In this document: positions 14,174 to 53,256 of the stretch, one piece after another
Layout of the letters: the number at the start of each line of letters is the position of its first letter
Numbering within the stretch: position 1 is the first letter of the stretch
Source: Candidatus Doudnabacteria bacterium
GTDB lineage: Bacteria > Patescibacteriota > Doudnabacteria > UBA920
DNA: 64,000 nt
NCBI GenBank assembly: GCA_963837465.1
Contig: CAWINB010000004.1
Coordinates: 330,853-394,852 of the forward strand
Direction of reading: 5' to 3'
Notes under the pieces: generated by a model
What the model was told of the DNA's origin: nothing
The model's input: only the letters and a program-made list of their open reading frames with translations
The model's database searches: none
Program-made: the position numbers and the translations under genes

Positions 14174-15578
14174 ACATGGCCCCTATCCGCCAGCGGCCAT
14201 TTTTTGATGTTCCTTAAGTTTAATGTTTTTAAATACTGCTGACTTTGCTTCCTGCATAAGTTTTGCCCATCCGTTATGGCTGTGGCCGGTGCTGATGTCA
14301 TCCAGTTGTTTTTCCGTCCGTCCTGGGGCAAGGTAGCGTGTCCAATTATCCAGAGTCTTCAGTTTGGCATAGGGAGTTAAGTAAATATCATATTTTTTCT
14401 TTTCCTTGCCCTTATGGTCAACCGTGGTGGTGGCAAAGCCGCAGGGTCTGTGGAAGTTCAGGTAAGGGTTAAAAAACTTCTGGTAAAATTCGTTAATCTC
14501 CTGCGCGTAGGTTTTCGGGATATGAGTGTAGCCCATATACTTTCTGATGACACTGCCGTTCTTGCTTTCCACTAAGGCATTGTCATTGCAGTGCCTGCTT
14601 CGTGATTTTGTCTGTTTAATAACTAACCTTCTAAGAATATCAGCTACCGTGTAATTAATGTTCTCGCTACCGTTGTCAGAGTGGAAGTTAATTACTGTAA
14701 AGGGAAACATTTGCTGCAACTGTTCAAATATGGGTTTTAAATGCAGCTCGGAAATCGTTTCCACACAGAAGACCATTTCCCATTGGGTGACTTCATCCAC
14801 CAGGTTTAAGTGGTAAATACCTTTCTCATACTTGCCCAAAGCCAGCTTACGGTCGCCCTGATGCACGGTATCCACCCGCAGATAGCCCGGAATGCCCATA
14901 TTGTCGGGTCTTCTTCTAATACCAATCGGGGTGCTTACTGGATCGGTTATGGTAAAGGTGGTGGAGTGGCTGGTGTAAATTCTTTTAACTCGCAGATTGT
15001 AGATATGGGAAACGGAAATATCTTTTAGTCTTTTAAACCGTTCGTCACCGAATATTTCATATTCAGCCATTAGGATCTGTTTGGTGGCATGGGCATTCAT
15101 TCGTTGGTGCAGATTATCGGTTTCAGCCAGCAATAGTATTTCTGCCGGGCCATAAACAGTAACAAACCGGTTTTTCTTGCCCCAATTCGGGGACAAGGCC
15201 ACTAACCCACTTCCTCTCTTGTTGGTAATCAGTCGTTTTAGCTGTCTGCCCGACATGCCGGTCATCCGTTGGATATATTCCTTAATCTGCCCCTTGTCTT
15301 TTTTGCCTTTAAGCCGGACATAGCCAAACTTGTTTAAGACGTTGTTAATCCATTCATATTTCTCCTTTCTGGAAACTGAGGTAAAATTAATTGCTGTATT
15401 GACCTTTAGAAATTCCTTGATTTGAGCTATGCTCGTAACGCTTAAGTCTGTCATATCGATTGTCATCAAGTCAGTGTGGCAGGCTTATGCTCTTTGTACA
15501 GCTTCCGGGCAACCCTCCGGTTTCAGCAATTGGGGTACCGTCCTCCTTTAGAGGCTGTCTCAAAGATAGGGGCCATGT
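14174..15578 (-). mobile_element. Insertion sequence encoding an rve-type DDE transposase, just upstream of the rRNA promoter
   Basis: 14-bp terminal inverted repeat, acatggcccctatc (14174-14187) / gataggggccatgt (15565-15578), bracketing a 428-aa transposase ORF. I saw no clear target duplication. Confidence 0.5.
14183..15469 (-). CDS. DDE (integrase-core, rve) transposase
   Basis: GYLRVDTVHQGD...GIYHLNLVDEVTQ...HSDNGSENIN...NDNALVESKNG is the DDE integrase-core pattern. The family (IS481 or ISNCY-like) cannot be settled by eye. Confidence 0.75.
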   Translation of the reverse strand: MMTIDMTDLSVTSIAQIKEFLKVNTAINFTSVSRKEKYEWINNVLNKFGYVRLKGKKDKGQIKEYIQRMTGMSGRQLKRLITNKRGSGLVALSPNWGKKNRFVTVYGPAEILLLAETDNLHQRMNAHATKQILMAEYEIFGDERFKRLKDISVSHIYNLRVKRIYTSHSTTFTITDPVSTPIGIRRRPDNMGIPGYLRVDTVHQGDRKLALGKYEKGIYHLNLVDEVTQWEMVFCVETISELHLKPIFEQLQQMFPFTVINFHSDNGSENINYTVADILRRLVIKQTKSRSRHCNDNALVESKNGSVIRKYMGYTHIPKTYAQEINEFYQKFFNPYLNFHRPCGFATTTVDHKGKEKKKYDIYLTPYAKLKTLDNWTRYLAPGRTEKQLDDISTGHSHNGWAKLMQEAKSAVFKNIKLKEHQKMAAGG

Positions 15579-15628: not shown

Positions 15629-16293
15629 TGCTTGGCGGTTAGGAATTAAATCTTAACGTTTAAAACTTCAATAAACTTTTAGTTCAATTTTGCTCTTATG
15701 TAAGCGGGCATCGCTGATTATAGGAGATCCCTATTGGCACCTGGGAGACTGGACATTATCCACATTTAAGATGGATATGTTTTTTTTAGCCTCAATTTTA
15801 GACCCTTCAGGATCAAATTATAGAGGCTAATCCGCCGAAGCCTTGGCGAAGGCTGGATAACTAAGTTTGATCGCCGATAAATCGGCACGCTACGCCAATC
15901 ATCTTGGTCAAAGCAAAGTACCTCAAAATGAGATGCTCCGCTCCGCTCAGGATGCGTTCCTACGGAACTGTACCTTAACAGTTAAATAGTGATTAGAAAA
16001 CACTGAATACCGCCCGGTATTTAGTGTGTACAAAACCATCGCGTCTTGACCTATTTAAACCAGGTTGAGATGCAATGTTTGCGTCAATTCAATATGAGTT
16101 CAATGATATTCTGTGAATAACAGAAAAATGTTTTGTTAGGTTTACATTTTACAAAAATAAATCTAACGCCAACTTAACATCAATATTTATATTCGTGTTA
16201 AGAGGTTTGTCTTTTAGACAGATCAAACTTTCAATTTTATTTCCGTCCCGCCAAAGGCTGGGACAATTCAGGATTTATAATTGATTTCTAATA

Positions 16294-17860
<1,567 letters not shown>

Positions 17861-17872
<12 letters not shown>

Positions 17873-18137
17873 AAGGAACTTTTCTTGACTACACTGGTTT
17901 TCGAACTGTGTGTCAAGACATTCTGTTGGTCGTCGTCAATTATTTCGATTTTTGACGCAATCCTTTCTCAATAAGAAACGACGTAAACGTAAGTGGTTTT
18001 GTATAGCGGTAATTCTACCCATATTTAGCAATAAATATGGGCCTGAGCGCCTTTAATGCTCGGGGTCACTATTTAGCCGTTAAAAAACGGAAATTGCAAT
18101 TAAAAAGCCTGACTTCTACTACTGAAGTGAGGCTTTT
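17861..18137 (+). other. 16S tail + trailer + terminator segment, copy S-A
   Basis: gtcactatttagccgttaa (18065-18083) pairs 18/19 with the leader ttaacagttaaatagtgat (15975-15993). tggttttgta (17994-18003) pairs with the leader tacaaaacca (16029-16038). Terminator hairpin at 18107-18137. Confidence 0.75.
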
Positions 18138-19121
18138 ATGTTTTATAAGGAAAGTGTCGTAGAAACATCTACGAAAACCGACAGTAGGGTTTTGCCATCG
18201 TCCCCGGCTGTTTACAGCCCAAAGATGAGCGAGTTGGTTGATGGGTTTTTAAAGCACGGTCAGTTTGATTTAAGCTGGTCGGCTGGGACAGTCGCAAAAT
18301 ACGGTGAGTGTTTACGGATGACTATTCGGGACATCGGCGATTTGCCGGTAAATGAAATCCGTTTGGTTCACCTTACGGAATTAAAATCTAAAATAATAAT
18401 GCGCGGAGCCGGAGAGTCCAGAGTCGGCTCAATGGTTTTTGCGTTAAAAAGTTTTTTAAAATACTGCAAGGAAATTGTGGAGTTGGATGTGCTGGACTTT
18501 AACAAGATTACCCCGCCAAAACGCCATCGCCGGGAAGTGCTGTTTTTGACCAACGAAGAAATTCAGCGGTTTGTGGATGTTATAAAAATAAAAAATACCT
18601 GGGATGGGAAAAATAAAAAGAGTTGCGTCCGAATGGATGGTCTAAGGTTCAGGGCTTTGGTAGAAGTCTTGCTTGGCAGCGGTATGAGAATATCCGAGGC
18701 GTTATCGCTTAACCGGGGTAGTATAAATTTTGAAAAGAAAGAGGCAAAAATTATCGGTAAAGGTAGCAAGGAACGCACGGTATTTTTTAACGATCGTTCG
18801 TTGGAATGGGTTAGGTATTTATTGGAAGAAAGGAAGGACAGTCACGAACCTTTATTTCTTTCCCAAAAAGGCAACAGGTGGGATAAGGGAGAAGTTAATA
18901 AACTGTTTCAGCGTTATACTAAAAAAGCGGAAATCACCAAAAAATTAACGCCCCATATTCTGCGGCATACTATGGCCACAAACTTACTTTTTAACGGTTG
19001 CCCGATTTCCCACGTCAAAGAAATTTTAGGCCATGATAGGCTGGAAACCACGTGCCGCTACTATCTGGGTTTGGACAAGAGTAAGGCCAAGGAGGCTCAC
19101 GAAAAATTCTTGAATTATTAA
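18138..19121 (+). CDS. Tyrosine recombinase/integrase, class A (copy 1)
   Basis: GMRISEALSL (R), HILRHTMATN (H-x-x-R), LGHDRLETTCRYY (H and Y). 327 aa. Paralogs at 34943 and 47997. Confidence 0.9.
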   Translation: MFYKESVVETSTKTDSRVLPSSPAVYSPKMSELVDGFLKHGQFDLSWSAGTVAKYGECLRMTIRDIGDLPVNEIRLVHLTELKSKIIMRGAGESRVGSMVFALKSFLKYCKEIVELDVLDFNKITPPKRHRREVLFLTNEEIQRFVDVIKIKNTWDGKNKKSCVRMDGLRFRALVEVLLGSGMRISEALSLNRGSINFEKKEAKIIGKGSKERTVFFNDRSLEWVRYLLEERKDSHEPLFLSQKGNRWDKGEVNKLFQRYTKKAEITKKLTPHILRHTMATNLLFNGCPISHVKEILGHDRLETTCRYYLGLDKSKAKEAHEKFLNY

Positions 19122-19159
19122 AAAAATTTATTGAATAAATAGCTCAATTTCGCTATAAT

Positions 19160-19365
19160 TAGAATAATTGAATAGGTGCCTAACCCCATGGCTAAAACTA
19201 TGGGTATGGTAGAAGTAAAGAATCCTCAGCTACGTAAAGACGGTCTCTTAACCGCTCTCGTAGCTGAGGTGCGTGCGAAAGCATGCGGTGGTGTCGAAAG
19301 GCACTGCTGCGGTTGGGAGGCCCTTTTTGTATCCAACCGCAATTTAAAAACCTCAGCTACAACAA
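19160..19365 (+). ncRNA. Candidate structured leader RNA upstream of the type III mod gene
   Basis: tataat at 19154-19159. 11-bp perfect stem cctcagctacg (19224-19234) / cgtagctgagg (19259-19269). Two adjacent GAAA-capped hairpins (cgtgc gaaa gcatg, gtgtc gaaa ggcac). gcggttgg/ccaaccgc stem. A second cctcagctac at 19351-19360, 5 nt before the ATG. Confidence 0.35.
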
Positions 19366-26425: not shown

Positions 26426-26502
26426 GGCAATTAGGTTGCTGCCTTGGGATCTGGTTTGCTCATAGAGGGGTTATCCTGAAACCGGGCAGCACCCTAATTG
26501 CC
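26426..26502. repeat. Long hairpin upstream of the 393-aa ORF
   Basis: ggcaattaggttgctgcc (26426-26443) pairs 17/18 with ggcagcaccctaattgcc (26485-26502). The loop is 41 nt. Confidence 0.6.
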
Positions 26503-26524
26503 TCTAAATAATCAAAATCCCTCT

Positions 26525-27703
26525 ATGATGATTGACAGTATACGTCTAAGAATTTCTATATTTAGTAGCGTGAAAAATAACTTCTTTTTTAGAGAAAAAA
26601 GAGGGAGCCTTGATTATGATAATAGTAATAGACAGAGGGTTAAACAATTTATACGAACCAATTTTAAGTGGAGCGAACAACAACGGTCTCAGGGTAAATA
26701 TATCCCAAAATATTGGACAGAAACCAACAGCTTTGAGGGCGGTAAACAGTATCTTATTTTTGAATTTTCAGTTCCAAAGTTCTTGCAGGGACATAATTTA
26801 GTCGAAATTGCAGAAACCATGCTGCCTGTCTTGGTGGATCGTCTCGAGGACTTCTGTAAAATAATTCAACTATCAGTTGCGGAGGTAGATATTTTGGGTG
26901 CGCAAGTCACGATGGTCGCATATTGTCATAATGTTCCGATAGCCCATCTGGCTCCTTCGCAAGAAGTTATGAAATTGTTATCTGGATATACCTATCGTTT
27001 TCGTTCTAAATTTCGGCCCGAGCAAAATGAATTGGGACAGATTACTCATTTACAACTCGGTAATAATACTTCCCATGTTACTGCTTATGATAAGTTGCCG
27101 GAGATTATAGTGCATGCCCGAACTACTGAGGAATTGGAAATTGCCAAAATAATTAAAAATAAACAGTTGCCAAATCCTTACGGAAAAATTATTCAAGACA
27201 CCATTAGGTTTGAGCTCACTTTACATAATACTGTGTCGGTAAGGCAAGCAATGAAAAAATTTTATGGTGACAAGCCTTTTTACACACTCAAGGATGTGTT
27301 CAAAGCCGATATTGCGGCGGCATTATTAAAGTTGGAAATGGAGGAAATTTATAATCACCCCCTTAAAAATATAGCTGCAAATTCTAATTATGACTTCCGA
27401 AAACTAAATGATGAGGTCGGTAAATTTATTCGAGACCGCCATCAGGACGGCAAACTGATTGGCTTGCTGGAACAGGCCACCCTTGTTCTACACGCCGGGG
27501 GCTGGGCGGCGGTCAGAACTTATTTAGCGAAAGGTTGTTGCCGCCGGACTTTGCAATACCGGATAGCTGAACTACGCGAAATAGAAAAAATTGGAATTAA
27601 TTTGGGAACGCCAAATGAAAAAATTATGGAATATATTTTAAACCAATTTGGCATTGGAAAAACTAATTTACTTCCTAAAGGCCAACAATTATTGTTTAGC
27701 TAA
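26525..27703 (+). CDS. Hypothetical protein (weak suspicion of a replication initiator)
   Basis: 392 aa. The N-terminus MMIDSIRLRI recalls the MIDW... start of gene II/X-type replication proteins. I could confirm no catalytic motif. Confidence 0.4.
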   Translation: MMIDSIRLRISIFSSVKNNFFFREKRGSLDYDNSNRQRVKQFIRTNFKWSEQQRSQGKYIPKYWTETNSFEGGKQYLIFEFSVPKFLQGHNLVEIAETMLPVLVDRLEDFCKIIQLSVAEVDILGAQVTMVAYCHNVPIAHLAPSQEVMKLLSGYTYRFRSKFRPEQNELGQITHLQLGNNTSHVTAYDKLPEIIVHARTTEELEIAKIIKNKQLPNPYGKIIQDTIRFELTLHNTVSVRQAMKKFYGDKPFYTLKDVFKADIAAALLKLEMEEIYNHPLKNIAANSNYDFRKLNDEVGKFIRDRHQDGKLIGLLEQATLVLHAGGWAAVRTYLAKGCCRRTLQYRIAELREIEKIGINLGTPNEKIMEYILNQFGIGKTNLLPKGQQLLFS

Positions 27704-27916: not shown

Positions 27917-28885
27917 ATGAGCCAGTTTAACCAAAACCCAGATCCTAATTTTATACAGCAGCCATCTGCTCCGGTTTTAGGTTTGCCGGTCGTAAATACC
28001 CCACAGCTTTTGACCTTTGAACAGTTGATCCCGTTGTTTGGCGATTACGTCACTTACGATTTGAATCATAGTCCTAAGACATCCAAAAAGTATGTCGAGG
28101 GGTTAAGGCATATTTTGAAAGACCTACCCTTTATAGTTTACCCCCAAGACTTAACGTTGCCGCATATTACGGAACTGAAGAAAAAAGTGCAGTTGCGTGG
28201 CGCAAAAGAGTCCCGAGTTAATAGTCTACTATTCTCATTGCGAAAATTTTTAACCTATTGTAACGAAGTCTATAAACTGGTTACAATAAATCCAAAGGAA
28301 ATTAAAGTTATGCGATTACCAAAAAGGGAAGTGGTGTTTTTGGCTCCTGCCGAAATTGAGCAATTTTTAAGCGCAATGGATACAACAACTTTGCCGGGAT
28401 TACGAATACGGACGCTTGTAGAGGTGCTACTTTCCACTGCTATGCGAATTTCCGAAGCCCTGTCGGTCAGCCGTGGGGACATTGACTGGGAGGGCAAGGA
28501 AATTGTCATTATAGGGAAAGGCAATAAGCAGCGGACGGTATTTTTAAGCGATAGGGCAATCGGTTGGCTTCAAACCTATTTACTCCGGCGTAAGGATAAT
28601 GACCCTGCTTTGTTCGTAACCTTTGGCGAACCCAAACGCTTGTCGCCTTATGACTTGTCTAAGCAGTTTAAGCACTATGCTGAAAAAGCAGGATTAAAGA
28701 AAAAAGTAACACCCCATATTTTACGCCATACGGCCGCGACAACCATGTCCCATAACGGCGCGGACATTCGTAACATTCAGCTAATTTTAGGCCATAGCGA
28801 CATTAAAACAACCGCCAAATATTACTTAGGCGTGGACAAAGAGGCTTTAAAGGAAGCCCATAAAAAGTTTCTAAAATACGATTAG
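27917..28885 (+). CDS. Tyrosine recombinase/integrase, class B (copy 1)
   Basis: AMRISEALSV, HILRHTAATTM, LGHSDIKTTAKYY. Its closest paralogs are at 39633 and the fragment at 48956-49412. Confidence 0.9.
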   Translation: MSQFNQNPDPNFIQQPSAPVLGLPVVNTPQLLTFEQLIPLFGDYVTYDLNHSPKTSKKYVEGLRHILKDLPFIVYPQDLTLPHITELKKKVQLRGAKESRVNSLLFSLRKFLTYCNEVYKLVTINPKEIKVMRLPKREVVFLAPAEIEQFLSAMDTTTLPGLRIRTLVEVLLSTAMRISEALSVSRGDIDWEGKEIVIIGKGNKQRTVFLSDRAIGWLQTYLLRRKDNDPALFVTFGEPKRLSPYDLSKQFKHYAEKAGLKKKVTPHILRHTAATTMSHNGADIRNIQLILGHSDIKTTAKYYLGVDKEALKEAHKKFLKYD

Positions 28886-29128: not shown

Positions 29129-29806
29129 ATGACGCCAATGGAAACCCCGTTGACCGTATCCACTAACAATCCCCGAGAAGGCAAACAGGGCCGGAAGTTG
29201 TATTACCGGCTCAAAACCTCAATTAAGAAATCCGGATTATTAATTGTAGCGCTTCAACCCGCGCTTGAGTTCCCCGGCACAGCGATGGAAGACGACATCG
29301 CGGCTATCTTGGTAAAGTATTCCAAGATGGCTCGTGGCATCGTTACTCCCGTCCGCGCCGAGGACACCGGCCTCATGCCCCAGGGCTATTCGGTATACCT
29401 CACGCCGCAGGGCGTTCGCAAGGATCGTCTGGAAGGCGACGTCGAGCTGGCTAATGTCGACTACATCTGCCCGTTGCGGGATGATGATGGCGACTATATC
29501 GGCGGCGAGGTAATGCTCCAGCGGTCGGTCGAACTCAAGGCCATCGGTAGCCTCGGCTACGCTTTCGCGCTTCTCAAGGCGCAGGAGCAAGGGAAGGAAA
29601 TCTTTCCTGTCGAGTCGCGCGGCAAGCATTATTTCATTATGCCGCTCACCGAGCTGCTCGGTGACGACCGTGGCCGCCGCGTGGCTTGCTTCGGCTGGCA
29701 CGGCAAGTCGCTGCGTTGGGTGCTCTTCTTCCGTTGGGTCGGCGGCGTCTTCGCTCGCCGCGGTCGGTTTGTTGTTCCCCGCGAGAAGAAGCCCTCGGTC
29801 GCTTAG
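29129..29806 (+). CDS. DGR variable (target) protein
   Basis: 225-aa ORF whose last ~50 codons are the variable repeat. The C-terminus ...ACFGWHGKSLRWVLFFRWVGGVFARRGRFVVPR parallels the TR-encoded ...AYFNWNDKSQRWVLNFNWVDNNFNRNDRFVVPR. Confidence 0.85.
   Translation: MTPMETPLTVSTNNPREGKQGRKLYYRLKTSIKKSGLLIVALQPALEFPGTAMEDDIAAILVKYSKMARGIVTPVRAEDTGLMPQGYSVYLTPQGVRKDRLEGDVELANVDYICPLRDDDGDYIGGEVMLQRSVELKAIGSLGYAFALLKAQEQGKEIFPVESRGKHYFIMPLTELLGDDRGRRVACFGWHGKSLRWVLFFRWVGGVFARRGRFVVPREKKPSVA
29654..29782 (+). repeat. DGR variable repeat (VR)
   Basis: 129 nt aligning without gaps to 30148-30276. By my hand alignment there are 26 differences, all at template adenines. Confidence 0.9.
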
Positions 29807-29853
29807 TCCCTCGGCTCTGCCGCTGGGTTCTGGACTCTTGGCGCTTCGCATTG

Positions 29854-29894
29854 CCCCGCATTTTGACTTCGGTCAGGATGCGGGGTGTTTTTTT
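29854..29894 (+). terminator. Terminator after the DGR target gene
   Basis: ccccgcat...atgcgggg stem with an inner tgac ttcg gtca, followed by a T7 run. Confidence 0.7.
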
Positions 29895-30147
29895 GTCCAA
29901 AATTTTGAAAGTTTGGTATAATTTAAGTAGATGGGATTTATGCCTGCGGTTAAGGCTTCAGGTGACCACATCTCGCATTGTTAAAAAACCAGAGTATCGG
30001 CGGCTACGGTTTCCGGTAGAGTGTTTTTTAACAAATCTTAAAAAGAAGATACTCGGTGCAAAGTATTGGCGGGCTTTAAGGCCCCAAATAAAATACAACC
30101 CCAAGAGTATTCAAGGGGTGGTGGCTTGGAATATACTTTGCATAATC

Positions 30148-30276
30148 CTGCTCGATGACAACCGTAACCGCAACGTGGCTTACTTCAACTGGAACGACAA
30201 GTCGCAGCGTTGGGTGCTCAACTTCAATTGGGTCGACAACAACTTCAATCGCAACGATCGGTTTGTTGTTCCCCGC
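30148..30276 (+). repeat. DGR template repeat (TR)
   Basis: Rich in AAC/AAT codons. Identical to the VR except at adenines. The last 19 nt (tcggtttgttgttccccgc) are A-free and identical in both copies. Confidence 0.9.
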
Positions 30277-30644
30277 TATTGTCTTCTTACTCCTCCCACA
30301 ACGGGAGGAGTTTCTTTTAATAACTGCCGCTGCCAGCCGCCAAACATTTTACCCGCGTCAACCAGAGGTGTTGAAATATCACTAAATTGTTTATTGTCTA
30401 AGGCTTTTAACTCCCAAGCCAATTGTAGGAAGTATTTAAGGGTATCAAGTTTAATGCTTGCCTTTTGAATTAAGATTGACTTGCTATCCCTTGAGGTAAA
30501 GCCCGCTGTCAGCGTTAGTTCAATAACATCGGTGAACAGGACATTGATTTTTTCAGCCAAGGAGTATTTTACCAGCTTGGGCAGGTGTGGCAGGTAGTTG
30601 TGCCAGAGTTTGTAAGCATCGGTAATTTTTTGTAATACCGGCAA
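30276..30644 (-). CDS. avd: Avd-like four-helix-bundle accessory protein
   Basis: 122 aa. The pattern KITDAYKLWHNYLPHLPKLVKYSLAEKI...LDTLKYFLQLAWELKALDNKQF fits the four-helix-bundle (23S-IVS protein/Avd) family. On the opposite strand to the TR and RT. Confidence 0.7.
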   Translation of the reverse strand: MPVLQKITDAYKLWHNYLPHLPKLVKYSLAEKINVLFTDVIELTLTAGFTSRDSKSILIQKASIKLDTLKYFLQLAWELKALDNKQFSDISTPLVDAGKMFGGWQRQLLKETPPVVGGVRRQ

Positions 30645-30662
30645 GTTGATAAAATTTCCGTT

Positions 30663-30673
30663 GGGGGGGGGGG
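30663..30673. repeat. G11 homopolymer between the avd and RT starts
   Basis: ttgggggggggggttg, counted as 11 G. Confidence 0.9.
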
Positions 30674-30703
30674 TTGTTAAAAGTCATTTTTATAAGTTTA
30701 ATT

Positions 30704-31717
30704 ATGAAAACGCAATTAAAAATAAGTTACGAGGAAATCATTTCACTCGAAAATTTGTTTGCCGCCTGGCAGGAGTTTTTGCCGGGCAAGAGAAAAAAGA
30801 AAGACGTGCAGGAATTTGGCCTTAGGCTTGCTGATAACATTTTACAGCTTCAGGAGGAACTTGCCAATTTTAGCTATATCCACGGCCCATACAAGGCCTT
30901 TAACATTTCTGACCCCAAGCCGAGGAATATCCATAAGGCAAGCGTTCGGGACAGAGTTTTACATCACGCCATTTACCGCAAACTATATCCGTTTTTCGAC
31001 AAAACTTTTATCGGCAGTTCGTATTCCTGCCGTTTGGACAAAGGAGTTCACAAGGCTTTGAATAAGTTTAGGGCATTGGCGTTTAAAGCAAGTAAAAATC
31101 ATACGCAAACAGCTTGGGTGCTCAAGTGTGATATTAAAAAGTTTTTCGCCAGCATTGACCATGCAAAACTGCTGAAAATTTTATCAGCTTACGTTCCCGA
31201 TAAAAATATTCTTTGGGTTTTAGAGCGAATTATTTATAGCTTTGATTATAAGGTAGCAGGCCGCGGCCTCCCGCTTGGCAACCTGACCTCCCAATTATTT
31301 TGCAACGTATATATGAACGAATTTGACCAATTCATAAAACACAAACTCAAGGCCAAATATTATATCCGTTATGCTGATGATTTTGTTTTTTTATCGGGTA
31401 GCAAGGACGAGCTAATATCCTTAGTTCCTAAAGTAGCCGAGTTTTTAGGAGAGGACTTAAAACTGTCTTTGCATCCGGATAAAGTTTTTATAAAGACCTT
31501 GGCCTCGGGCGTGGACTTCCTGGGCTGGGTGCATTTCCCTCATTACCGGGTTCTAAGAAAAAATACCGGCAGAAGAATGTTCAAACGAATTTACGGCCAT
31601 CCAACAAATGAAACATTCCAGTCATATTTAGGGTTAATGAGCCACGGAAATACTTACGGGCTTAAACAAAAATTGTTGAATTGGTATGGGTTACTTAAAA
31701 CAGCACAGCAGGAATAG
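30704..31717 (+). CDS. DGR-type reverse transcriptase
   Basis: RT motifs including LPLGNLTSQLFCNVYMNEFD (the DGR-typical GxxxSQ) and YADDFVF. 337 aa from the ATG at 30704. Confidence 0.9.
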   Translation: MKTQLKISYEEIISLENLFAAWQEFLPGKRKKKDVQEFGLRLADNILQLQEELANFSYIHGPYKAFNISDPKPRNIHKASVRDRVLHHAIYRKLYPFFDKTFIGSSYSCRLDKGVHKALNKFRALAFKASKNHTQTAWVLKCDIKKFFASIDHAKLLKILSAYVPDKNILWVLERIIYSFDYKVAGRGLPLGNLTSQLFCNVYMNEFDQFIKHKLKAKYYIRYADDFVFLSGSKDELISLVPKVAEFLGEDLKLSLHPDKVFIKTLASGVDFLGWVHFPHYRVLRKNTGRRMFKRIYGHPTNETFQSYLGLMSHGNTYGLKQKLLNWYGLLKTAQQE

Positions 31718-34487: not shown

Positions 34488-34587
34488 GGAGCAATATGAT
34501 GGCAAGTGGTTAGATAAAACTGCATTTGAAGACGTAGTGGAAACGGTAAAGAAAAGGTTTTACACCAAACCAGAAAGCAGAATTTAA

Positions 34588-34662
34588 CAATTAAATTGAT
34601 CTTTTAAATTTTTAATACAGTAGTAGTTTGTCAGGCAATTTCCGTTTACAACGGCTCAGAAA
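34588..34662 (+). repeat. Right-end repeat R1, copy a
   Basis: Matches 51785-51858 except for a 1-nt indel. Ends ...gcaatttccgtttacaacggctcagaaa immediately before CACCTCC. Confidence 0.85.
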
Positions 34663-34679
34663 CACCTCCTTTCTAAGGA
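34663..34679 (+). repeat. att core copy 2 (cacctcctttctaagga)
   Basis: 17/17 identical to the 16S 3' tail at 17861-17877. Confidence 0.85.
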
Positions 34680-34942: not shown

Positions 34943-35929
34943 ATGTATGAGGTTAATTCGGTAGAAAGAGTCGCAAAAGGTGGAATTGCGGCGACAGTCA
35001 GCCCCGCCGCTCCTATCGGCACAAAGATTAGCACTTTGGTGCCGCAATTCTTGGCTTATGGCCAGTATGACCTGTCCTTTGCCGCAGGCACCATAGAGAA
35101 ATACCGCGATAGCCTAAACGTCTTTATGCGGGACGTTGGGGATTTGCCCGTAGAGGAATTAAACTTTGGGCATTTTACTTTGCTGAAACAAAAAATTATG
35201 GAAAGGGGGTCGGGGGTCTCACGCATAGCGGGCGTGGTCTTTGCGATGAAAAGTATGTTAAAGTTTGCTACCGACGTATTGGAGATGCAGATTTTGGATT
35301 ATAAGAAAATCAGAGCGCCGAAGCGGCGCAGGCGGGACGTAGTTTATTTAACCAATGCCGAAATCCAGCAGTTCGTTGACAGCATAAAGTTTGAAAAATG
35401 CTGGACGGGCAATACCCGTAAAAAGGGCATCAGCGTCCACCGCCTGAGGTTTCGGACTTTGGTTGAAGTCTTGCTTGGCACGGGGATGCGTATAAGCGAA
35501 GCATTGTCGCTTACAAGGGATGTTATAAACTTTGAAAAAGGCGAGGCTAAGATAATCGGCAAAGGAAGCAAGGAGCGCACAGTGTTTTTTAACGAACGGG
35601 CTTTGTATTGGATTAAGTTTTATTTGGAACAGAGAAACGACGACAATCCCGTTATATTTTTAAACCGAAAAGGCAAGCCGCTGGACAGGGGCGATGCCGA
35701 TACTTTGTTTAAGCGTTACGCAGAAAGGTCAGGTATAACTAAAAAATTAACGCCGCACATTTTGCGGCACACGATGGCGACGAATCTGCTTTTTAACGGA
35801 TGCCCGATTGGCCATATTAAGGAAATCCTCGGACACGACCGATTAGAGACAACTTGTCGTTATTATTTGGGCTTAGACAAAGATAAAGCTAAAGAAGCCC
35901 ACGGCCAATTTTTAAATTACGAACAATAA
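34943..35929 (+). CDS. Tyrosine recombinase/integrase, class A (copy 2)
   Basis: GMRISEALSL, HILRHTMATNLLFNGCPI, LGHDRLETTCRYY. Confidence 0.9.
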   Translation: MYEVNSVERVAKGGIAATVSPAAPIGTKISTLVPQFLAYGQYDLSFAAGTIEKYRDSLNVFMRDVGDLPVEELNFGHFTLLKQKIMERGSGVSRIAGVVFAMKSMLKFATDVLEMQILDYKKIRAPKRRRRDVVYLTNAEIQQFVDSIKFEKCWTGNTRKKGISVHRLRFRTLVEVLLGTGMRISEALSLTRDVINFEKGEAKIIGKGSKERTVFFNERALYWIKFYLEQRNDDNPVIFLNRKGKPLDRGDADTLFKRYAERSGITKKLTPHILRHTMATNLLFNGCPIGHIKEILGHDRLETTCRYYLGLDKDKAKEAHGQFLNYEQ

Positions 35930-38582: not shown

Positions 38583-39614
38583 ATGCAAAATACAGCAGTA
38601 GCAACTATGAACCCGCCTATGCTGGCGGTTGCAGAAGACTTGTCGCCGATAGAAATTGTCTATTTGGCCACAAGCGAGATTCGGCCTGATAAAAATCAGC
38701 CCCGTAAATCTCTAGACAGTAAGAAAATTAAGGAAATGGCGGAAAGCATTAAGGCCGTTCGGGGGATTATAAATCCCATCGAAGTCGACCAAGACTATAT
38801 TATTGTTACGGGACAGCTCCGCTGGGAAGCCGCTAAGGTGGCGGGGTTAGAAAAAGTGCCGTGCAAAATAATAGAAATCAGCGATGAGGAGCGCTTCCGC
38901 AGGCAAGTAGTGGAAAACTTGCACCACAACGTGATGAGCGATATGGATATTGCTAAAGCATTTGCTAAGATGCTTAACATTCTACCTGGTAGCAGGTTGC
39001 AGGGAAAAGACGCTGGCCTTAGCCGCTTGGCTGAAGATATTGGTAAAAGCGTGGACTACATCAGCCAGCATTTAGACCGATTGGAAGACTCTGGGCGCAT
39101 TCAGGAAGCTTTGAGTTCGGGAAAAATTTCTTTTACCCACGCAAGAGAGACAAAGAAAGTTCCCGCTGGCTTCAGGGAAGCCGTAGAGAAAAAAATGCTG
39201 GCGGGCGAGTTTCCCCATAGCGGTTCCATAGCGGAATTGGCTAAAGGCTTAAAGAGGAATCCAGATAAAGCCGACCAAATTTTGGCATTTAATTTTACGG
39301 AGTTAAAGTCGCCTGAGGAAGTTAAACAGGCAGTATCCAAAATTGCATCTCCTGCGGCGGATGCTTCGGGGGCAGTAGAGGAATTCAATAGAATTATAAA
39401 TGGGCTTATGCACTGGCTTGAAAACACCCCGTCGTCCTATGCCGCTGAACACCCCGAATTGAAAATCAACCAAACGCTAACCAAGCTCGGCAAGGAGATT
39501 AAGAAATGGCTGAAAAATCTGAAAGAATTTCAGGCTCGAGCGGAAGTTAAGGGGCAGACGATGTTGGATATGGATATCCCCGAAATAACAGTAGATGATA
39601 TCCCCGAATTCTAA
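38583..39614 (+). CDS. ParB/Srx-like nuclease-domain protein
   Basis: IRPDKNQPRKSLDSKKIKEMAESIKAVRGIINPIEV...VTGQLRWEAAKVAGLEKVPCKI is the ParB N-terminal domain pattern. Confidence 0.75.
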   Translation: MQNTAVATMNPPMLAVAEDLSPIEIVYLATSEIRPDKNQPRKSLDSKKIKEMAESIKAVRGIINPIEVDQDYIIVTGQLRWEAAKVAGLEKVPCKIIEISDEERFRRQVVENLHHNVMSDMDIAKAFAKMLNILPGSRLQGKDAGLSRLAEDIGKSVDYISQHLDRLEDSGRIQEALSSGKISFTHARETKKVPAGFREAVEKKMLAGEFPHSGSIAELAKGLKRNPDKADQILAFNFTELKSPEEVKQAVSKIASPAADASGAVEEFNRIINGLMHWLENTPSSYAAEHPELKINQTLTKLGKEIKKWLKNLKEFQARAEVKGQTMLDMDIPEITVDDIPEF

Positions 39615-39632: not shown

Positions 39633-40682
39633 ATGAACAATATGACAACCTTCACTAAACAGTGGACTTCCAATAGGCCTAGAATTTTCGGGGTCTTTGG
39701 GAAAACCCAGCAGGATGACACATTTGAAATTTTAATTCCAAAATTTCTTGACTACGCCCAATTTGATTTGAAACTGGCCAAAGAGACCATCGGAAAATAC
39801 AAAGAATCTTTGGGTTGGGTGACAAGGTATCTGCCCGACGTGGAACGCCCCGCCCAAATGACGCTGGAAGATGTTACCCGAATTAAAAAGCAGGTGGCAA
39901 TGCGTGGCAATAGCGAGGCTCGGACTAACTCCATTATCTTCGCCTTGCGGAAGTTTTTGGACTATTGCGGCAAGCGGATGCAGATTGAAACCATTGACCC
40001 AAAGACCATAGAGCCGCTGAAAATCCCCAAGCGGGAAGTTATCTACCTTAACAAGGACGAGATAAAAAATCTGCGTGATGTATTTGACTTAGCCAACAAG
40101 CGGGAGTTCCGAATGCGGGTGCTGGTGGAATTTCTGCTCGGCACGGGAATGAGAATCTCTGAAGCGCTATCGGTCAATCGTGAGCAGATTAATTATGACA
40201 GCAAGGAAATAAAAATTGTCGGCAAGGGCAACAAGGAGCGCACAGTTTTTGTTTCCGATGATGCCTTAGGCTGGATAAAAAGGTATCTGGATACCCGCAC
40301 GGATGACAATCCTGCTGTCTTTATAACCTTTGGCGAGCAAGAAAGGTTAAGGCGGGGCGACTTGGCAGAATTATTAAGAGGTTATGGAATAAAAGCGGGG
40401 CTACAGAAGAAAGTTACGCCGCATATCTTGAGACACTCATCGGCAACCACGATGATGCGGAAAGGCTGTCCTCTGCCTTACATCCAGCAGTTGCTCGGCC
40501 ACGCCGACATTAAAACGACCGCCAAATATTATCTTGGCGTTGATAAACAATCCGTCAAAGATGCTCACGAAAAATATCTTAAGTTCGACCACCACCGTTT
40601 GGGAATGGCGGCACCTGTGCGTAAAGGTATTGACTTGGATAGCTACCTTGAGTATTTCTCGGCCTATCTTCCGAAAGAGTAG
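39633..40682 (+). CDS. Tyrosine recombinase/integrase, class B (copy 2)
   Basis: GMRISEALSV, HILRHSSATTM, LGHADIKTTAKYY. Has a ~30-aa C-terminal extension. Confidence 0.9.
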   Translation: MNNMTTFTKQWTSNRPRIFGVFGKTQQDDTFEILIPKFLDYAQFDLKLAKETIGKYKESLGWVTRYLPDVERPAQMTLEDVTRIKKQVAMRGNSEARTNSIIFALRKFLDYCGKRMQIETIDPKTIEPLKIPKREVIYLNKDEIKNLRDVFDLANKREFRMRVLVEFLLGTGMRISEALSVNREQINYDSKEIKIVGKGNKERTVFVSDDALGWIKRYLDTRTDDNPAVFITFGEQERLRRGDLAELLRGYGIKAGLQKKVTPHILRHSSATTMMRKGCPLPYIQQLLGHADIKTTAKYYLGVDKQSVKDAHEKYLKFDHHRLGMAAPVRKGIDLDSYLEYFSAYLPKE

Positions 40683-45833: not shown

Positions 45834-46049
45834 CCAATTTAGTTTTCCTACAAAAAGCTATTAAAACTCAATCGGCTAATTTAGGCTCTTAAACAATAGT
45901 GGGTAGCACAGAGGGTAAACTTTGGGAGGGGATAACTGTGTTGCTACAACTTTTTGTAATCGCTAACATCTGTGTAAGACTTTAAAAATTAAATATCTTT
46001 GCTGACCGAAGCGTAGTGCAGGAATTATTTTTTTACACCTCGGATTAAA
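45834..46049 (+). repeat. Right-end repeat R2, copy a
   Basis: About 216 nt, homologous to 47498-47720. Shared blocks are ctattaaaac, aaacaatagtggg, ggtaaactttgg, ggataact, cgctaacatc, tttaaaaattaaatatc and ttacacctcggattaaa. Confidence 0.8.
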
Positions 46050-46056
46050 CACCTCC
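46050..46056 (+). repeat. att core copy 3 (cacctcc followed by atacggctaca)
   Basis: Heptamer preceded by ...cggattaaa and followed by the short left-end type. Confidence 0.6.
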
Positions 46057-46124
46057 ATACGGCTACAACTTCCTCACTTAGCAAAAATCGCCCAAAAGGC
46101 GGTTTTTTTTGTTATAATTTAACT

Positions 46125-47486
46125 ATGCACGAACCAACTGAACCTAATAATCAACCCTGTCCAGGTTGTGGCTATCCAGCTCAAGCTGGCCACGCTCCTA
46201 ATTGCCCTACTGTCAGCAAAGGCGAAAAGGAAAAAAACCTTGAAGGAGTAGAAGCAAGGAAGTATACGGCCGAGGATATACAAAATTTTCAGGGTGAATT
46301 ATCACAATTTGAAAAAATGCGTAAGGCTGATAATGCCAACTACGTCTTTGATTTTACCGAGTATTACCAATTTTTAACCCAGCACAAAAAATCTCAAGAA
46401 CGACCTTTTACACAAAGAGATGTTTCGACACCTGGCTATCAAGATTTGGAAGTTGGCATATTCAAAGGCTGGAAACAAAATTTGTTAGCCAAAAAAGACA
46501 AACTCATCCAGTCACGACCAAAATTAGCACCGATTATCGGAATGCTAGAGAGCGAGCCTACGCCAAAAACCTTAGATGAACTTCGGGATTTGTTTAGAAA
46601 ACATCCCGACTTAAATGAATTTGGCGCAGTCCAATACCAAGACGGCGTGGGAGAACAGGGAGAAAAGAAAAGCGGATTTTTGCATATCAATATGTCCCGC
46701 TATAACGGCTATGAATACGAACTACCCAAGACGGATACCAGAGTTTACTTAAACCCGCCACCCGAAGCTATACCGCAAATATCTATGGAGCTTTGTAATA
46801 TAGCACAGGCTAAAAGATTTCCGTTATATTTTAAAACCATAGATTATTCTTTTCAAAAACCCAATCCCGACAACACCAACAGGCTGGATAAGTTTATTGT
46901 TTATACAGACAAGGCGCACGTGACCGCTCTCTCCCAAGAATTAAAAACTTTGCAAAGCAAACATCCCGAATGGTTTAACGGCAGAGAATTGCCAACTATG
47001 GTTGCCAAAATGGGCGAGGGCGTGGGAGTAGCGGAAGACCCTAACGAACAACAAATGCAAAAGTTTGGCGAGCGTGGCAAGTCATTTAACGGTATGAGGG
47101 CTTTATTTTTAAAGGATGTTTGGACGGGTGTGACAAAAGACATTATCTTAGCGCAACGGACTTGGCGGCCAAGAGGCGGTAGGACTATGGAAGAAATTTT
47201 TAATGATAATCTAAAAGCTGGGCTAACTCGTAGGCAGTTACAGCCTAATGTGATAGCCGATGTTATCGGCAAGGCTTGGGCGGCACAATTAGATAGTTCA
47301 AGAATGGGAAGTCTTCCCGACAGCAGAATAGCAGATGAAGTTGATAATGCCGTGGCAAGAACTATGGCTGATGTAATTCCTAACATTACCCCTGATTCCT
47401 TGCAACCAGCCGTGCAAAACCAAATCAACAAAAAAGCAAAGGATTATTTTATTAACCCTAATAATTTAGCTTTTAATCAAATTTAA
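46125..47486 (+). CDS. Hypothetical protein with an N-terminal Cys-rich knuckle
   Basis: 453 aa. The N-terminus contains CPGCGYPAQAGHAPNCP. The -10 box lies about 9 nt before the ATG, so the 5' UTR is very short or absent. Confidence 0.45.
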   Translation: MHEPTEPNNQPCPGCGYPAQAGHAPNCPTVSKGEKEKNLEGVEARKYTAEDIQNFQGELSQFEKMRKADNANYVFDFTEYYQFLTQHKKSQERPFTQRDVSTPGYQDLEVGIFKGWKQNLLAKKDKLIQSRPKLAPIIGMLESEPTPKTLDELRDLFRKHPDLNEFGAVQYQDGVGEQGEKKSGFLHINMSRYNGYEYELPKTDTRVYLNPPPEAIPQISMELCNIAQAKRFPLYFKTIDYSFQKPNPDNTNRLDKFIVYTDKAHVTALSQELKTLQSKHPEWFNGRELPTMVAKMGEGVGVAEDPNEQQMQKFGERGKSFNGMRALFLKDVWTGVTKDIILAQRTWRPRGGRTMEEIFNDNLKAGLTRRQLQPNVIADVIGKAWAAQLDSSRMGSLPDSRIADEVDNAVARTMADVIPNITPDSLQPAVQNQINKKAKDYFINPNNLAFNQI

Positions 47487-47497
47487 GGGATTATGGC

Positions 47498-47720
47498 CAG
47501 TTTAGTTTTTGTATAAGAATCTATTAAAACTAAATCGGCTTTAAACAATAGTGGGCGGTAGTGGGGGTAAACTTTGGAGGGGATAACTTTGTTGCTAAAA
47601 AATTTTACTGCCGCTAACATCCGAGTAGCAATTTAAAAATTAAATATCATCGCTGTAAGCGAGCTTGAAAATAAATAGTGGGAGCGAGTGGGGGTGAACA
47701 ACTTTACACCTCGGATTAAA
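47498..47720 (+). repeat. Right-end repeat R2, copy b
   Basis: See 45834-46049. Contains ataaatagtggg (leader-like) and ends ...ttacacctcggattaaa. Confidence 0.8.
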
Positions 47721-47737
47721 CACCTCCTTTCTAAGGA
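47721..47737 (+). repeat. att core copy 4 (cacctcctttctaagga)
   Basis: 17/17 identical to the 16S 3' tail. Confidence 0.85.
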
Positions 47738-47996: not shown

Positions 47997-48968
47997 ATGT
48001 TCTATGCAAAAACGTCACTTGAATCAACCGCTAAAGTAGGAACTTTAGCGCCAATCTCCAATGATTTGACAATGAGCCAGCTCATTCCAATGTTTTTAAA
48101 GTACGGTCAGTTTGAATTAATGTTCTCACAGAACACGCTCACCAAATACGACGAGTGTTTAAAATGGGTTGTTAGGGACATCGGCGATTTGAAGGTCACG
48201 GAGTTAAGCCTGTTCCATTTTACCGAGTTAAAACAGATAATAACTAACCGTGGTTGCGGCACCAGCCGCGTTGCTTCCATGGTGTTCTCCATGAAGAGTT
48301 TCCTTAAGTATTGCAAGGACTATCTAGAGCTGCCGGTCATGGATTACAAAAAGATAAGGTCGCCGCGGTTTAAGCGCCGTGAAGTGATTTATTTAACTAA
48401 CGAAGAGATTGAGCAGTTTGTCAGCGCCATTAAAATAGAGAATGGCCCTCGTGCCATAAATTCGGTACGTATGGATGGCCTAAGGTTTCGGGTACTGGTG
48501 GAAGTCTTGCTCGGCACCGGCATGCGCATTTCTGAAGCCTTGTCGCTTAACAGGGATATGGTTGATTTTGAAAAGGCCGAAGCCAAGATTATAGGCAAAG
48601 GCAGCAAAGAACGTACAGTATTTTTCAGCGAGCGGTCGCTTGATTGGGTCAAGCGTTATCTATCCCTGCGTACAGACAATGAACCCGCTTTGTTTCTCAC
48701 CCAGCAGAATACGCGCCTGTCCAAGATAGATGTGCCCGGCTTCTTTAAACGGTACAGCAAGAAGGCCGGTATAACGAAGAAACTGACACCGCACGTGCTC
48801 AGGCATACCTGTGCTACGAACCTCTTGTTTAACGGCTGTCCCATAAACAATGTTCAAGTAATTTTAGGGCATGACCGGCTGGAAACCACCTGTCGCTATT
48901 ATCTCGGTGTTGACAAAACAAAAGCCAAAGAGGCACATGGCAACTTTTTAAATTATCAATTGTCGTAA
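47997..48968 (+). CDS. Tyrosine recombinase/integrase, class A (copy 3)
   Basis: GMRISEALSL, HVLRHTCATNLLFNGCPI, LGHDRLETTCRYY. Confidence 0.9.
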   Translation: MFYAKTSLESTAKVGTLAPISNDLTMSQLIPMFLKYGQFELMFSQNTLTKYDECLKWVVRDIGDLKVTELSLFHFTELKQIITNRGCGTSRVASMVFSMKSFLKYCKDYLELPVMDYKKIRSPRFKRREVIYLTNEEIEQFVSAIKIENGPRAINSVRMDGLRFRVLVEVLLGTGMRISEALSLNRDMVDFEKAEAKIIGKGSKERTVFFSERSLDWVKRYLSLRTDNEPALFLTQQNTRLSKIDVPGFFKRYSKKAGITKKLTPHVLRHTCATNLLFNGCPINNVQVILGHDRLETTCRYYLGVDKTKAKEAHGNFLNYQLS

Positions 48969-49412
48969 TTTAGATACTTTGCGTGCGCGGCTTTCAGCGC
49001 GCGTTTATCGGTGCCCAGATAATACTGGGCCGTGGTGCGAATGTCCGAGTGCCCCAAGAGTTCCTGGATATAGCGGATGTCGCAACCGTTTTCCAGCATG
49101 ATCGTCGCGGCCGTGTGCCGCAGCGTATGCGGCGTGACTTTTTTCTTGATCCCGGACTTGGCCGCATACCTGCGGAATTCCTTGCCCAGGTCATAGCGGG
49201 CAAGCCGCTTGGCTTTGCCGAACGTCACGAAAAGGGCCAGGTTGTCATCGGTTCGGCTTTGCAGATACTTATTTATCCATTCCAAAGCGCGATCGCTTAT
49301 GAAAATTACCCGTTCCTTGTTGCCTTTGCCGATTATGGTAGCTTCTTTGGTTTGCAAGTTTATGCTGTCGCGGTTAAGGCTTAAAATTTCCGAAATACGG
49401 CCGCCGGTGTCG
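48956..49412 (-). pseudogene. Class B tyrosine recombinase, C-terminal half only
   Basis: The minus-strand reading ...DTGGRISEILSLNRDSINLQTKEATIIGKGNKERVIFISDRALEW...HTLRHTAATIM...LGHSDIRTTAQYY runs only from the catalytic Arg region onward. The upstream part is replaced by IS256-like sequence. Confidence 0.75.
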
Positions 49413-50210
49413 GAAACTTATGGTGTTGAGATTTCGCAGTCAGCGATTTCCGGCATCACGGATAAAGTTTTTCCACAAATGAAGGAATGGCAATCCAAAC
49501 CGCTGTCGTCATTATATCCGTTGCTTTATTTGGACGGTCTGTGGTTTAAAGTTAGGGATAGCGGCAAAATTGTAACCAAGTGTGCCTATATTGCTTTGGG
49601 TATTTGGATTTGCGAGAGCGAGGGCGCAAAATTTTGGTTACAGGTTTTGAGCGAGATAAAAAATCGGGGCGTGGAGTCTGTGCTTATTGCTTGCGTGGAC
49701 GGCTTGAAAAGTTTTCCCGAAGCTATTAAAACTGTGTTCCCGGAAGCCGAGGTGCAAGCCTGCATAGTTCACCAAATTCGTCACACCATAAAGTTCGTGT
49801 CCCACAAAGACCGAAAAACTTTATGCGAAGATTTAAAGAGCGTTTATGCTGCACCATCTGAGGTGGTTGGGTTACAGGCTTTGGAGGAGGTTAAGCAAAA
49901 GTGGCCCCAATACAGTTTCTGCTTAAACAAGTGGGAACAGAGATGGACTGACCTTGCGCCATTCTTTGGCTATCCCGAGCAGATTCGGCGGATAATGTAT
50001 ACCACTAACGCCATAGAAAACCTAAACCGCCAGTTTCGCAAAGTCACCAAGACCACGCAGGTCTTTCCGCACGATGACTCTCTGCTTAAATTGCTCTGGC
50101 TGGCGCAGGACGAGTTGGCAAGGAACTGGGTTATGCCCATGCATAACTGGGGTCAAATTATCACCCAGTTTGCTATCCTGTTTCCAGATAAAATAAATAC
50201 AGAAAATTAA
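49413..50210 (+). pseudogene. IS256-family (Mutator-type) transposase fragment
   Basis: YGVEISQSAISGITDKV...LYLDGLWFKVRD...ACVDGLKSFPEAI...CIVHQIRH...TTNAIENLNRQFRKVTK. The N-terminal part is missing and a segment after YIALGI appears to be deleted. The N-terminus of track ORF 49209 is antisense integrase sequence. Confidence 0.7.
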
Positions 50211-51784: not shown

Positions 51785-51858
51785 CAATTAATTGATCTTT
51801 TAAATTTTTAATACAGTAGTAGTTTGTCAGGCAATTTCCGTTTACAACGGCTCAGAAA
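51785..51858 (+). repeat. Right-end repeat R1, copy b
   Basis: Nearly identical to 34588-34662. Confidence 0.85.
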
Positions 51859-51865
51859 CACCTCC
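51859..51865 (+). repeat. att core copy 5 (cacctcc followed by ctccggctaca)
   Basis: Heptamer preceded by ...ggctcagaaa. Followed by a short left end with the terminator cccgctc gtaatt gagaggg ttttt. Confidence 0.6.
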
Positions 51866-52033
51866 CTCCGGCTACAGAAAATGCAAATACAGAAACTGTC
51901 CAAGAATGAAATCGCCCGCTCGTAATTGAGAGGGTTTTTGATTATAAGAGACCGATGGGTTGTGGTTCATGTTACCTCTGGACAGTTTTCGGCCGTAGGT
52001 TATAATTAAGGCAAGATATTAACTAATTATTAT

Positions 52034-52891: not shown

Positions 52892-52965
52892 TGGACTGGG
52901 AATCCTGTACAGGTATATTAGATAGAAAATCGGGGGTATAATACTGTCAGGAAGGAATAACAAAA

Positions 52966-53256
52966 ATGAAAAAGGTGTTTACCCCGCAGCAGAAAGCTGC
53001 GGTAGCCCTGGAGGCCATTAAGGGCGAATTAACAATTGCACAGATTGCCAGTCAATACGAAGTTCATCCCACTCAGATCGCAGTCTGGAAGAAACAGGCC
53101 ATAGAGATTTTAAAGGCCGGCTTTACCGATAAGCGTAAAAAGGAAAATTTTGACCAGCAGAGGATAACTGATGACCTCTACAAGACCATCGGCCAGCGCG
53201 ACATGGAGCTGGCCTGGCTTAAAAAAAAGTTGCAGCCATTTGGACTTTCAGACTAA
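52966..53256 (+). CDS. IS3-family transposase OrfA (HTH)
   Basis: MKKVFTPQQKAAVALEAIKGELTIAQIASQYEVHPTQIAVWKKQ... plus a leucine-zipper-like end. Confidence 0.8.
   Translation: MKKVFTPQQKAAVALEAIKGELTIAQIASQYEVHPTQIAVWKKQAIEILKAGFTDKRKKENFDQQRITDDLYKTIGQRDMELAWLKKKLQPFGLSD

Follow-up and report, generated by a model that had tools for sequence, protein, structure and literature searches.

Paired Xer-type tyrosine recombinases of integrative elements arrayed in tandem at the 3' end of a Doudnabacteria 16S rRNA gene

Here, we describe a 64,000-nt stretch of DNA from Candidatus Doudnabacteria (GenBank assembly GCA_963837465.1, contig CAWINB010000004.1, positions 330,853 to 394,852 of the forward strand; the whole stretch is referred to below as the window). 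Within it, integrative elements of a Patescibacteria (Candidate Phyla Radiation, CPR) genome are inserted one behind another at the 3' end of the 16S rRNA gene and fill 42 kb (17871-59947). The units of this array encode two classes of tyrosine recombinases, A and B, and the analysis centres on class B, represented by the gene B1 at 27917-28885. The position of class A strongly supports its identification as the integrase of the 16S core. Class B is, to judge from alignments and a tree of its relatives, a long-maintained, catalytically intact paralogue, the clade of which was found only with 16S-end elements, and the co-divergence of the two classes marks it as a second backbone gene within one element lineage, with the cargo turning over around it. 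Our tentative preference is that B acts on the attachment (att) core of its own element as the paralogous partner of A, in the manner of XerC and XerD.

Results

A tandem array of integrative elements behind the 16S rRNA gene

The attachment core starts with the last 10 nt of the 16S rRNA gene, and the "16S-like core" of the initial annotation is a true bacterial 16S 3' end. Identical 17-nt copies of the core open the three units U1, U2 and U3, and a shorter version closes the array (Table 1). We identify 17871-59947 as an inserted array because copies of the core bound the units, the housekeeping genes 5' of the 16S gene, NusA among them, are arranged as they are in Doudnabacteria and further Patescibacteria genomes, and chromosomal genes (a LytR_cpsA_psr gene and an ABC transporter) resume 3' of 59947. 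The contig that carries the array is 868 kb long. A full unit opens with the 17-nt core, a putative trailer copy of ~260 nt and a class A gene. Cargo comes next, followed in many cases by a replication or partition gene, then by class B and further cargo, and the unit finishes in a right-end arm continuous with the next core. Direct repeats of the target end also bound units in loci L002, L113, L121, L160, L244 and L245, and a like architecture with real 16S genes is present in other CPR genomes. A terminal overlap, as in circular contigs, was absent from all fetched loci.

In shape, the core combines an inner YTCC/GGAR dyad around TTTCTAA, common to both arms, with outer arms that differ, and the motifs of the right-end arm vary with the class of the second recombinase. 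A 76-nt right-end block (34594-34669, including the first 7 nt of the core) is 100% identical to 51790-51865 and ~90% identical to positions 9636-9723 of L245, which suggests recent exchange between units. At two half cores (46048-46067 and 51857-51876 with their 3' flanks), nnnCGGCTACA takes the place of TTTCT, the trailer and class A. Neither of the segments that follow, 46057-47727 (where a HopA1-like gene lies) and 51866-59942, contains a recombinase gene, and both finish in normal right ends. The 16S gene is followed by neither spacer tRNAs nor a 23S gene within the window and, by the gaps in BLAST alignments with related CPR 16S genes, carries ~100 extra nt near positions 160-260.

Class A and class B are distinct clades of Xer-type recombinases

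All six recombinase genes of the window match the tyrosine recombinase domain PF00589 with E values of 1e-30 to 1e-40 (the five intact genes score 132-139 bits and a fragment 107 bits, against a cutoff of 27.1). Related recombinases, 147 in all, were collected from the window and from ~95 loci of genomes and metagenomes (L numbers), divided into four classes at 45% identity, and placed on a bootstrapped tree. Class A, with 84 members, includes all 56 genes that lie just 3' of a core; none of the 19 members of class B adjoins one. Of the 20 class C genes, 13 lie at the right ends of units, 85-220 nt 5' of the core, and the 13 members of class D are mostly internal. The monophyly of each class was recovered (bootstrap 96% for A, 84.5% for B, and 100% for both C and D), in agreement with the initial recognition of two distinct tyrosine recombinase classes in the window, and A, B and C form a clade with 89% support that unites with D, at 100%, against other Xer-like proteins.

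All window copies have the catalytic residues R, K, H, R, H(/W) and Y, as do nearly all of the 125 full-length relatives of classes A to D. Proteins of classes A and B are two-domain Xer-type recombinases, for which the best-scoring models are XerA, XerC and XerD and the nearest structures XerD and XerA. The two classes score alike on these models. Their scores stay below the equivalog cutoffs of the XerC and XerD NCBIfam models (335/330 bits), with 145-158 bits for class A and 165-180 bits for class B. The same holds for NF040815, the archaeal XerA / "integron integrase" model (177-197 bits, below 220), and for the integron integrase models TIGR02249 (83-99 bits; cutoff 265) and NF011946 (57-71 bits; cutoff 435). 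One structural match, chain 14 of PDB 9i5v, labelled RaiA, was judged irrelevant; the aligned part is an XerC-like recombinase sequence, and the entry is a ribosome structure of Porphyromonas gingivalis (PMC12123416).

Class A is the left-end integrase of the 16S core

The class A genes of the window are 59-63% identical to one another and carry the motifs by which the initial annotation had defined the class. In all three units the class A ATG lies 265-269 nt 3' of the core, that is, at the left end where these genes had been placed. The assignment of class A as the integrase of the 16S end, which had been proposed from the window alone, extends to the fetched loci because every recombinase gene immediately downstream of a 16S-end core belongs to this class (56/56). 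Class A genes also follow real 16S genes elsewhere in CPR (L006, L015, L016, L090, L104, L107 and L120-L124), and a 1.84-kb unit between two cores in L133 contains class A as its sole gene.

The ~260-nt stretch between the core and class A shows conservation across nine loci of different CPR lineages and a high degree of structure (z -5.5). Two of its blocks, TGGTTTTGTA and TCACTATTTAG, have their complements at 16029 and 15983 in the 16S 5' leader and are kept in all three units. The stretch terminates in a hairpin and U-run that include a GAGG ribosome-binding motif and abut the class A ATG; 4 of the 14 hairpin pairs show compensatory changes. These features point to an element-borne copy of the pre-16S 3' trailer.

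Class B genes and their neighbours

The class B genes of the window are 49-52% identical to one another and 41-47% identical to class A. The third copy, in U3, is a remnant of 133 C-terminal residues placed tail-to-tail with A3, with an overlap of 13 nt. The initial annotation had placed a class B fragment at 48956-49412; the piece is real, but it is encoded on the minus strand and spans 48956-49357, and a 5'-truncated IS256-type transposase gene abuts it. The same tail-to-tail layout with both genes intact was found in L099, L109, L125, L128, L130, L145 and L156.

Profile matches confirm the genes initially reported in front of class B (Table 1), namely a replication gene 5' of B1, which starts 214 nt after it in U1, and a ParB-like gene that ends 18 nt before B2. 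In three units, B comes last in a run of genes, 18-35 nt behind a gene for ParB (U2), a PrimPol-helicase (L003) or a DnaG-type primase (L160). Of ~14 distinct contexts, only 4-5 have a replication or partition gene before B; the other upstream neighbours are TerL (terminase), a distant third recombinase, small open reading frames (ORFs) of no known function, and minus-strand genes. The third recombinase, 368 aa long, lies directly 5' of class B in L004 (7694-8800), L005 (6840-7946) and L243 (8892-9998), the units of which thus hold three recombinases.

Class B faces the right-hand core, in the same direction as class C. The named relatives of B are CPR bacteria, and no close relatives were found on viral contigs, plasmids or phages (best identity 31-34%). 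Identity to the nearest records from plasmids and phages is 31-33%, and the annotated ones among the matches listed are named xerC, xerD or integrase.

Class A and class B are inherited together

Pairing was counted over units that start with a core-adjacent class A gene, 27 of which are informative. A second full-length recombinase (B, C or D) is present in 5 of the 7 complete units and in 13 of the 20 units with at least 5 kb downstream, giving 18/27, or 20/27 when the U3 remnant and a distant B gene on the L015 contig are included. The conserved pairing that had been suggested as a check on the two classes is thus seen in at least 18 of the 27 units. Units with both A and B occur in genomes labelled Saccharibacteria (L002, L004, L005, L244) and on metagenome contigs (L084, L085, L090, L091), and one Doudnabacteria contig reads 16S gene, core, A, ~30 kb, DnaG-type primase, B, zeta toxin, core, A.

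Distances among the A genes of nine units correlate strongly with those among their B genes (Mantel r 0.86, p 1e-4). The genes that lie between the two have no homology from unit to unit, and the cargo on both sides of B turns over fast. The co-divergence of A and B and the lack of any att-like repeat or degenerate core between them indicate that B is part of the element rather than an independent element nested in it.

A natural hybrid recombinase was found directly behind the 16S core and trailer of L245 (1735-2730). It is A1-like for ~205 residues, up to the IIGKGSKERTVF box, and 80-97% B1-like from there on, and looks like the outcome of a deletion by recombination between the A and B genes of one unit.

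Search for a separate site near class B

A search for a dif-like site near class B had been suggested as a check, and neither such a site nor any other conserved or dyad-symmetric site was found adjoining the B genes of 18 loci. A census of 11-mers in the 3 kb on each side of these genes returned just A/T-rich words, common to no more than four loci. Alignment of the upstream and downstream flanks showed no conserved block, although a fast-evolving site could escape such a comparison. Degenerate cores with up to three mismatches were absent between A and B in every unit.

Two repeats near B1 were considered and set aside. An inverted repeat 3' of B1, AAACTATCC...GGATAGTTT, is kept in L243 and L245; it was assigned to a diversity-generating retroelement rather than to B because in L005 it follows an intervening gene and stands directly before the retroelement target and a TTGACA/TATAAT promoter. 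A direct repeat of 17 of 18 nt (24532 and 34580) brackets B1 in U1; it is at chance level, does not extend, and was rejected as a pair of att sites, and no bracketing repeat was found in U2.

Table 1. Features of the 16S-end array and its surroundings (positions in the window)
Feature	Position	Strand	Details
16S rRNA gene	16287-17870	+	Rfam RF00177, 1274.6 bits, full length
Core copy 1, attL of U1	17861-17877	+	CACCTCCTTTCTAAGGA, 17 nt
Putative element-borne mimic of the pre-16S 3' trailer	17878-18137	+	between core copy 1 and A1
A1, left-end integrase of U1	18138-19121	+	327 aa
Rolling-circle type replication initiator	26498-27703	+	PF05144 (filamentous-phage family), E 1.4e-6, above curated cutoff
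B1	27917-28885	+	322 aa
Diversity-generating retroelement linked to B1	29654-31717	+	variable repeat (VR) 29654-29782; template repeat (TR) 30148-30276; reverse transcriptase (RT) 30674-31717 (RVT_1 match)
Right-end arm of U1	34581-34662	+	runs into core copy 2
Core copy 2, U1/U2 junction	34663-34679	+	same 17-mer, CACCTCCTTTCTAAGGA
A2	34943-35929	+	328 aa
ParB-like gene	38583-39614	+	PF02195, E 4e-18; stops 18 nt before B2
B2	39633-40682	+	349 aa
Half core 1	46048-46056	+	canonical right end finishing in AACACCTCC, then ATACGGCTACA where TTTCT and trailer are expected
Core copy 3, U2/U3 junction	47721-47737	+	same 17-mer, CACCTCCTTTCTAAGGA
A3	47997-48968	+	323 aa
Class B remnant	48956-49357	-	C-terminal 133 aa, 66% identical to B1
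IS256-type transposase, 5'-truncated	49209-50210	+	PF00872, profile positions 119-377 of 379; abuts class B remnant
Half core 2	51857-51865	+	AACACCTCC, then CTCCGGCTACA
Last core copy, closes the array	59936-59947	+	12-nt version of CACCTCCTTTCTAAGGA

Discussion

A candidate partner of the integrase

Class B shares a dedicated clade with two classes that abut the core, which would favour action at the 16S core over action at a plasmid-type res site. Under the reading that we tentatively prefer, in which B and A are paralogous partners on the same core, A would serve the trailer-side half-site, and B the half-site made by the right-end arm or by the 16S side. Being often the last gene of a replication or partition operon, B would become available chiefly in active or circular stages of the element, and the resolution of multimers at the core of the element could be a by-product.

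Several observations weigh against this partnership. The pair is not always kept: in addition to the A-only unit of L133, there are units with C only (L141 and L157/L158), the L245 unit has the single A::B hybrid, and B has decayed in U3. In L082, a core and trailer on the minus strand at 17723 have no class A gene after them and a convergent class B gene lies ~7 kb away, so that this may be a unit with B only. Such one-recombinase units are possibly fossils or non-autonomous. The tree does not settle the order in which A, B and C branch (47% for B+C), which weakens the argument that B inherited its specificity for the core. Furthermore, the asymmetric core is also compatible with a system of a single recombinase, and the recurring place of B after Rep, ParB, PrimPol-helicase and DnaG-type primase genes fits plasmid maintenance just as well. 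The circular form, the empty site and recombinase activity were not observed, and all the steps proposed for B are inferred.

A stronger version of the partnership is doubtful in our view. It holds that A and its second recombinase are an obligate heteromer, a dedicated Xer-like pair in which A would occupy the trailer side and B, C or D the 16S side; the family, widespread in CPR, would insert at the near-universal 16S 3' end, its own trailer copy would preserve the maturation of 16S rRNA, and the integrase would be translated only when the trailer hairpin opens, coupling the behaviour of the element to rRNA transcription. Given the one-recombinase units, an obligate heteromer would need help in trans from neighbouring units.

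The pair XerC/XerD comprises single-copy host genes, the products of which act at dif near the terminus. Classes A and B resemble them as two-domain Xer-type proteins without an arm-binding domain, as two paralogues kept together, and in the shared inner dyad and differing outer arms of the site. Unlike xerC and xerD, the genes described here are borne by the element in several copies beside the 16S gene, the site is the 16S 3' end, the scores are far below the equivalog cutoffs, and joint action is an inference. In Tn554, TnpA and TnpB are two tyrosine recombinases that are jointly required for site-specific insertion and are encoded adjacently at one end, with tnpC. The likeness, drawn by description, lies in two paralogous tyrosine recombinases on one site-specific element; here, in contrast, A and B are located on opposite sides or tail-to-tail. 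The staphylococcal cassette SCCmec employs the serine recombinases CcrA and CcrB and targets the 3' end of rlmH, a protein-coding gene. It shares with the present elements paired paralogous recombinases, a target at the 3' end of a conserved ribosome-related gene, and tandem composite arrays with accessory cargo, and differs from them in the type of recombinase and in a target that is protein-coding rather than an rRNA gene.

Alternative roles of class B

The initial annotation proposed that B is a multimer-resolution or partition-associated recombinase for an episomal stage, with A handling integration and excision. On this reading, B would be a plasmid-type resolvase, coupled to partition, that acts at a res or dif-like site of its own, and A would integrate and excise the element alone. 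Gene order speaks for this proposal, in that B closes operons 18-35 nt after ParB, PrimPol-helicase and DnaG-type primase genes and stands 214 nt after the Rep gene in U1, and the elements probably replicate as circles because B adjoins replication and partition genes; A-only units, moreover, imply that A can stand alone. The adjacency to such genes has held up, but the rest of the proposal fares less well: no conserved or dyad site was found beside B in the 18 loci, the upstream neighbour is mostly some other gene, and B comes from the clade of 16S-end elements, whereas a generic enzyme is not expected to be drawn always from one 16S-element-specific clade. In addition, a simple Xer-type integrase with an attP core could itself resolve multimers. 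Known resolution systems of plasmids and phages, such as Cre/loxP and ResD/rfsF, have a recognisable dyad site beside the gene. These are like B in being simple tyrosine recombinases beside replication or partition genes, but no such site was found for B in the 18 loci, and its closest matches in plasmid and phage records are, as given above, only 31-33% identical. A dedicated resolvase is less probable than the partnership and is, with the fusion considered next, a real rival to it.

It is rather unlikely that A and B are each self-sufficient for the 16S core, so that two-recombinase units would be old fusions of left-end elements with right-end (rep-int-attP) elements and the second gene would be largely redundant. 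One-recombinase units are known for A, for C and possibly for B; B faces the right-hand core as class C does; and decay and merging do occur, as in the U3 remnant and the L245 hybrid. Integrative elements of actinomycetes such as pSAM2 have the order rep-xis-int-attP, target tRNA genes, and rely on a single integrase with an excisionase, along with transfer genes. The B end of the units recalls that order, with a replication gene followed by a recombinase that faces the att site, and in both cases the 3' end of a stable-RNA gene is the target and is restored by the element; unlike in pSAM2-type elements, the target here is an rRNA gene and a second recombinase lies beyond the att site. Against a fusion with redundancy, both genes remain intact, with all catalytic residues, down to 47-60% identity, and this persistence across divergence argues for selection on both A and B. 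No unit retains an internal core remnant between A and B, and the tight tail-to-tail A/C and A/D pairs resemble one module.

That B runs another reaction at a variant site, for example the capture or shuffling of integrase-less cargo at the CACCTCC crossover of the half cores, is quite improbable. Two segments that lack both recombinase and trailer do begin right after AACACCTCC with nnnCGGCTACA and close in canonical right ends, and the rapid turnover of cargo on both sides of B would suit such a role. Half cores are nevertheless limited to these two, both in the window, with none in 3 Mb of related loci, where the CGGCTACA motif 3' of the half cores had no other instance either, and they are not tied to B specifically. 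Integrons invite the same comparison, with tandem cargo units that each end in a recombination site, an Xer-related recombinase, and, here, two integrase-less cassette-like segments; they differ from the present array in that the recombinase of the array is found in every unit and not once on a platform, the TIGR02249 scores are 83-99 vs 265 bits, and no attC-like folded sites were seen.

We consider it very improbable that B genes are independent elements nested in A elements with att sites of their own, a case that the initial annotation had raised against its reading: B is found with no A within 10 kb upstream in L003, L082 and L243 and the 17-of-18-nt repeat brackets the B1 region, but A and B co-diverge, the repeat is of a kind expected by chance, cannot be extended and lacks an equivalent in U2, in the one case examined A was found 30 kb upstream in the same unit, and B has no close relatives on viral contigs, plasmids or phages.

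Placement among known elements and implications

In kind, the array is a known one, that of a site-specific integrative element with tyrosine recombinases forming tandem arrays; the 16S-end target, the trailer copy and the two co-evolving paralogues per unit look new. In the searched literature, no relevant paper was found on elements that target the 16S 3' end or on recombinases beside unlinked rRNA genes, although a description outside it is possible. The co-evolving second paralogue on a mobile element would be a new case beside XerC/XerD and Tn554.

These elements target the end of the 16S gene, which is among the most conserved of bacterial sequences, and stack defence systems there in genomes of less than 1 Mb. 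Should the recombinase pair be the source of this specificity, tools for integration in a broad range of hosts could be developed from it, including for CPR bacteria, which are hard to manipulate. Tandem insertion at this site would also account for the metagenome contigs that often break right after the 16S gene in these lineages.

Cargo and other features of the window

The cargo of the array is mostly defence-related, with type III and type II (Dcm/PstI-type) restriction-modification, AbiE, and the diversity-generating retroelement that follows B1. The VR of this retroelement is the 3' end of the ORF at 29129-29806, and every mismatch between TR and VR falls on an A in TR. The succession of a B1-type recombinase and a retroelement recurs elsewhere, namely in L005, L243, L245 and the P0014 contig.

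Genes of insertion sequences with an rve integrase core (PF00665) lie around and in the array, at 14183-15469 on the minus strand and at 53171-54139 on the plus strand, the latter with a score just below the curated cutoff.

The LOOT RNA motif (RF03000) is present in three copies, two in the window (689-802 and 19177-19305) and one in L003 (3056-3175). The copy at 19177-19305 is just 3' of A1, behind a promoter-like site (19131-19159). The motif was ruled out as a part of the class A module, as the other copies lie away from recombinases and before unrelated genes; the genes after the three copies, which encode a bPH_2 protein, a DNA methylase and a TPR protein, are mutually unrelated.

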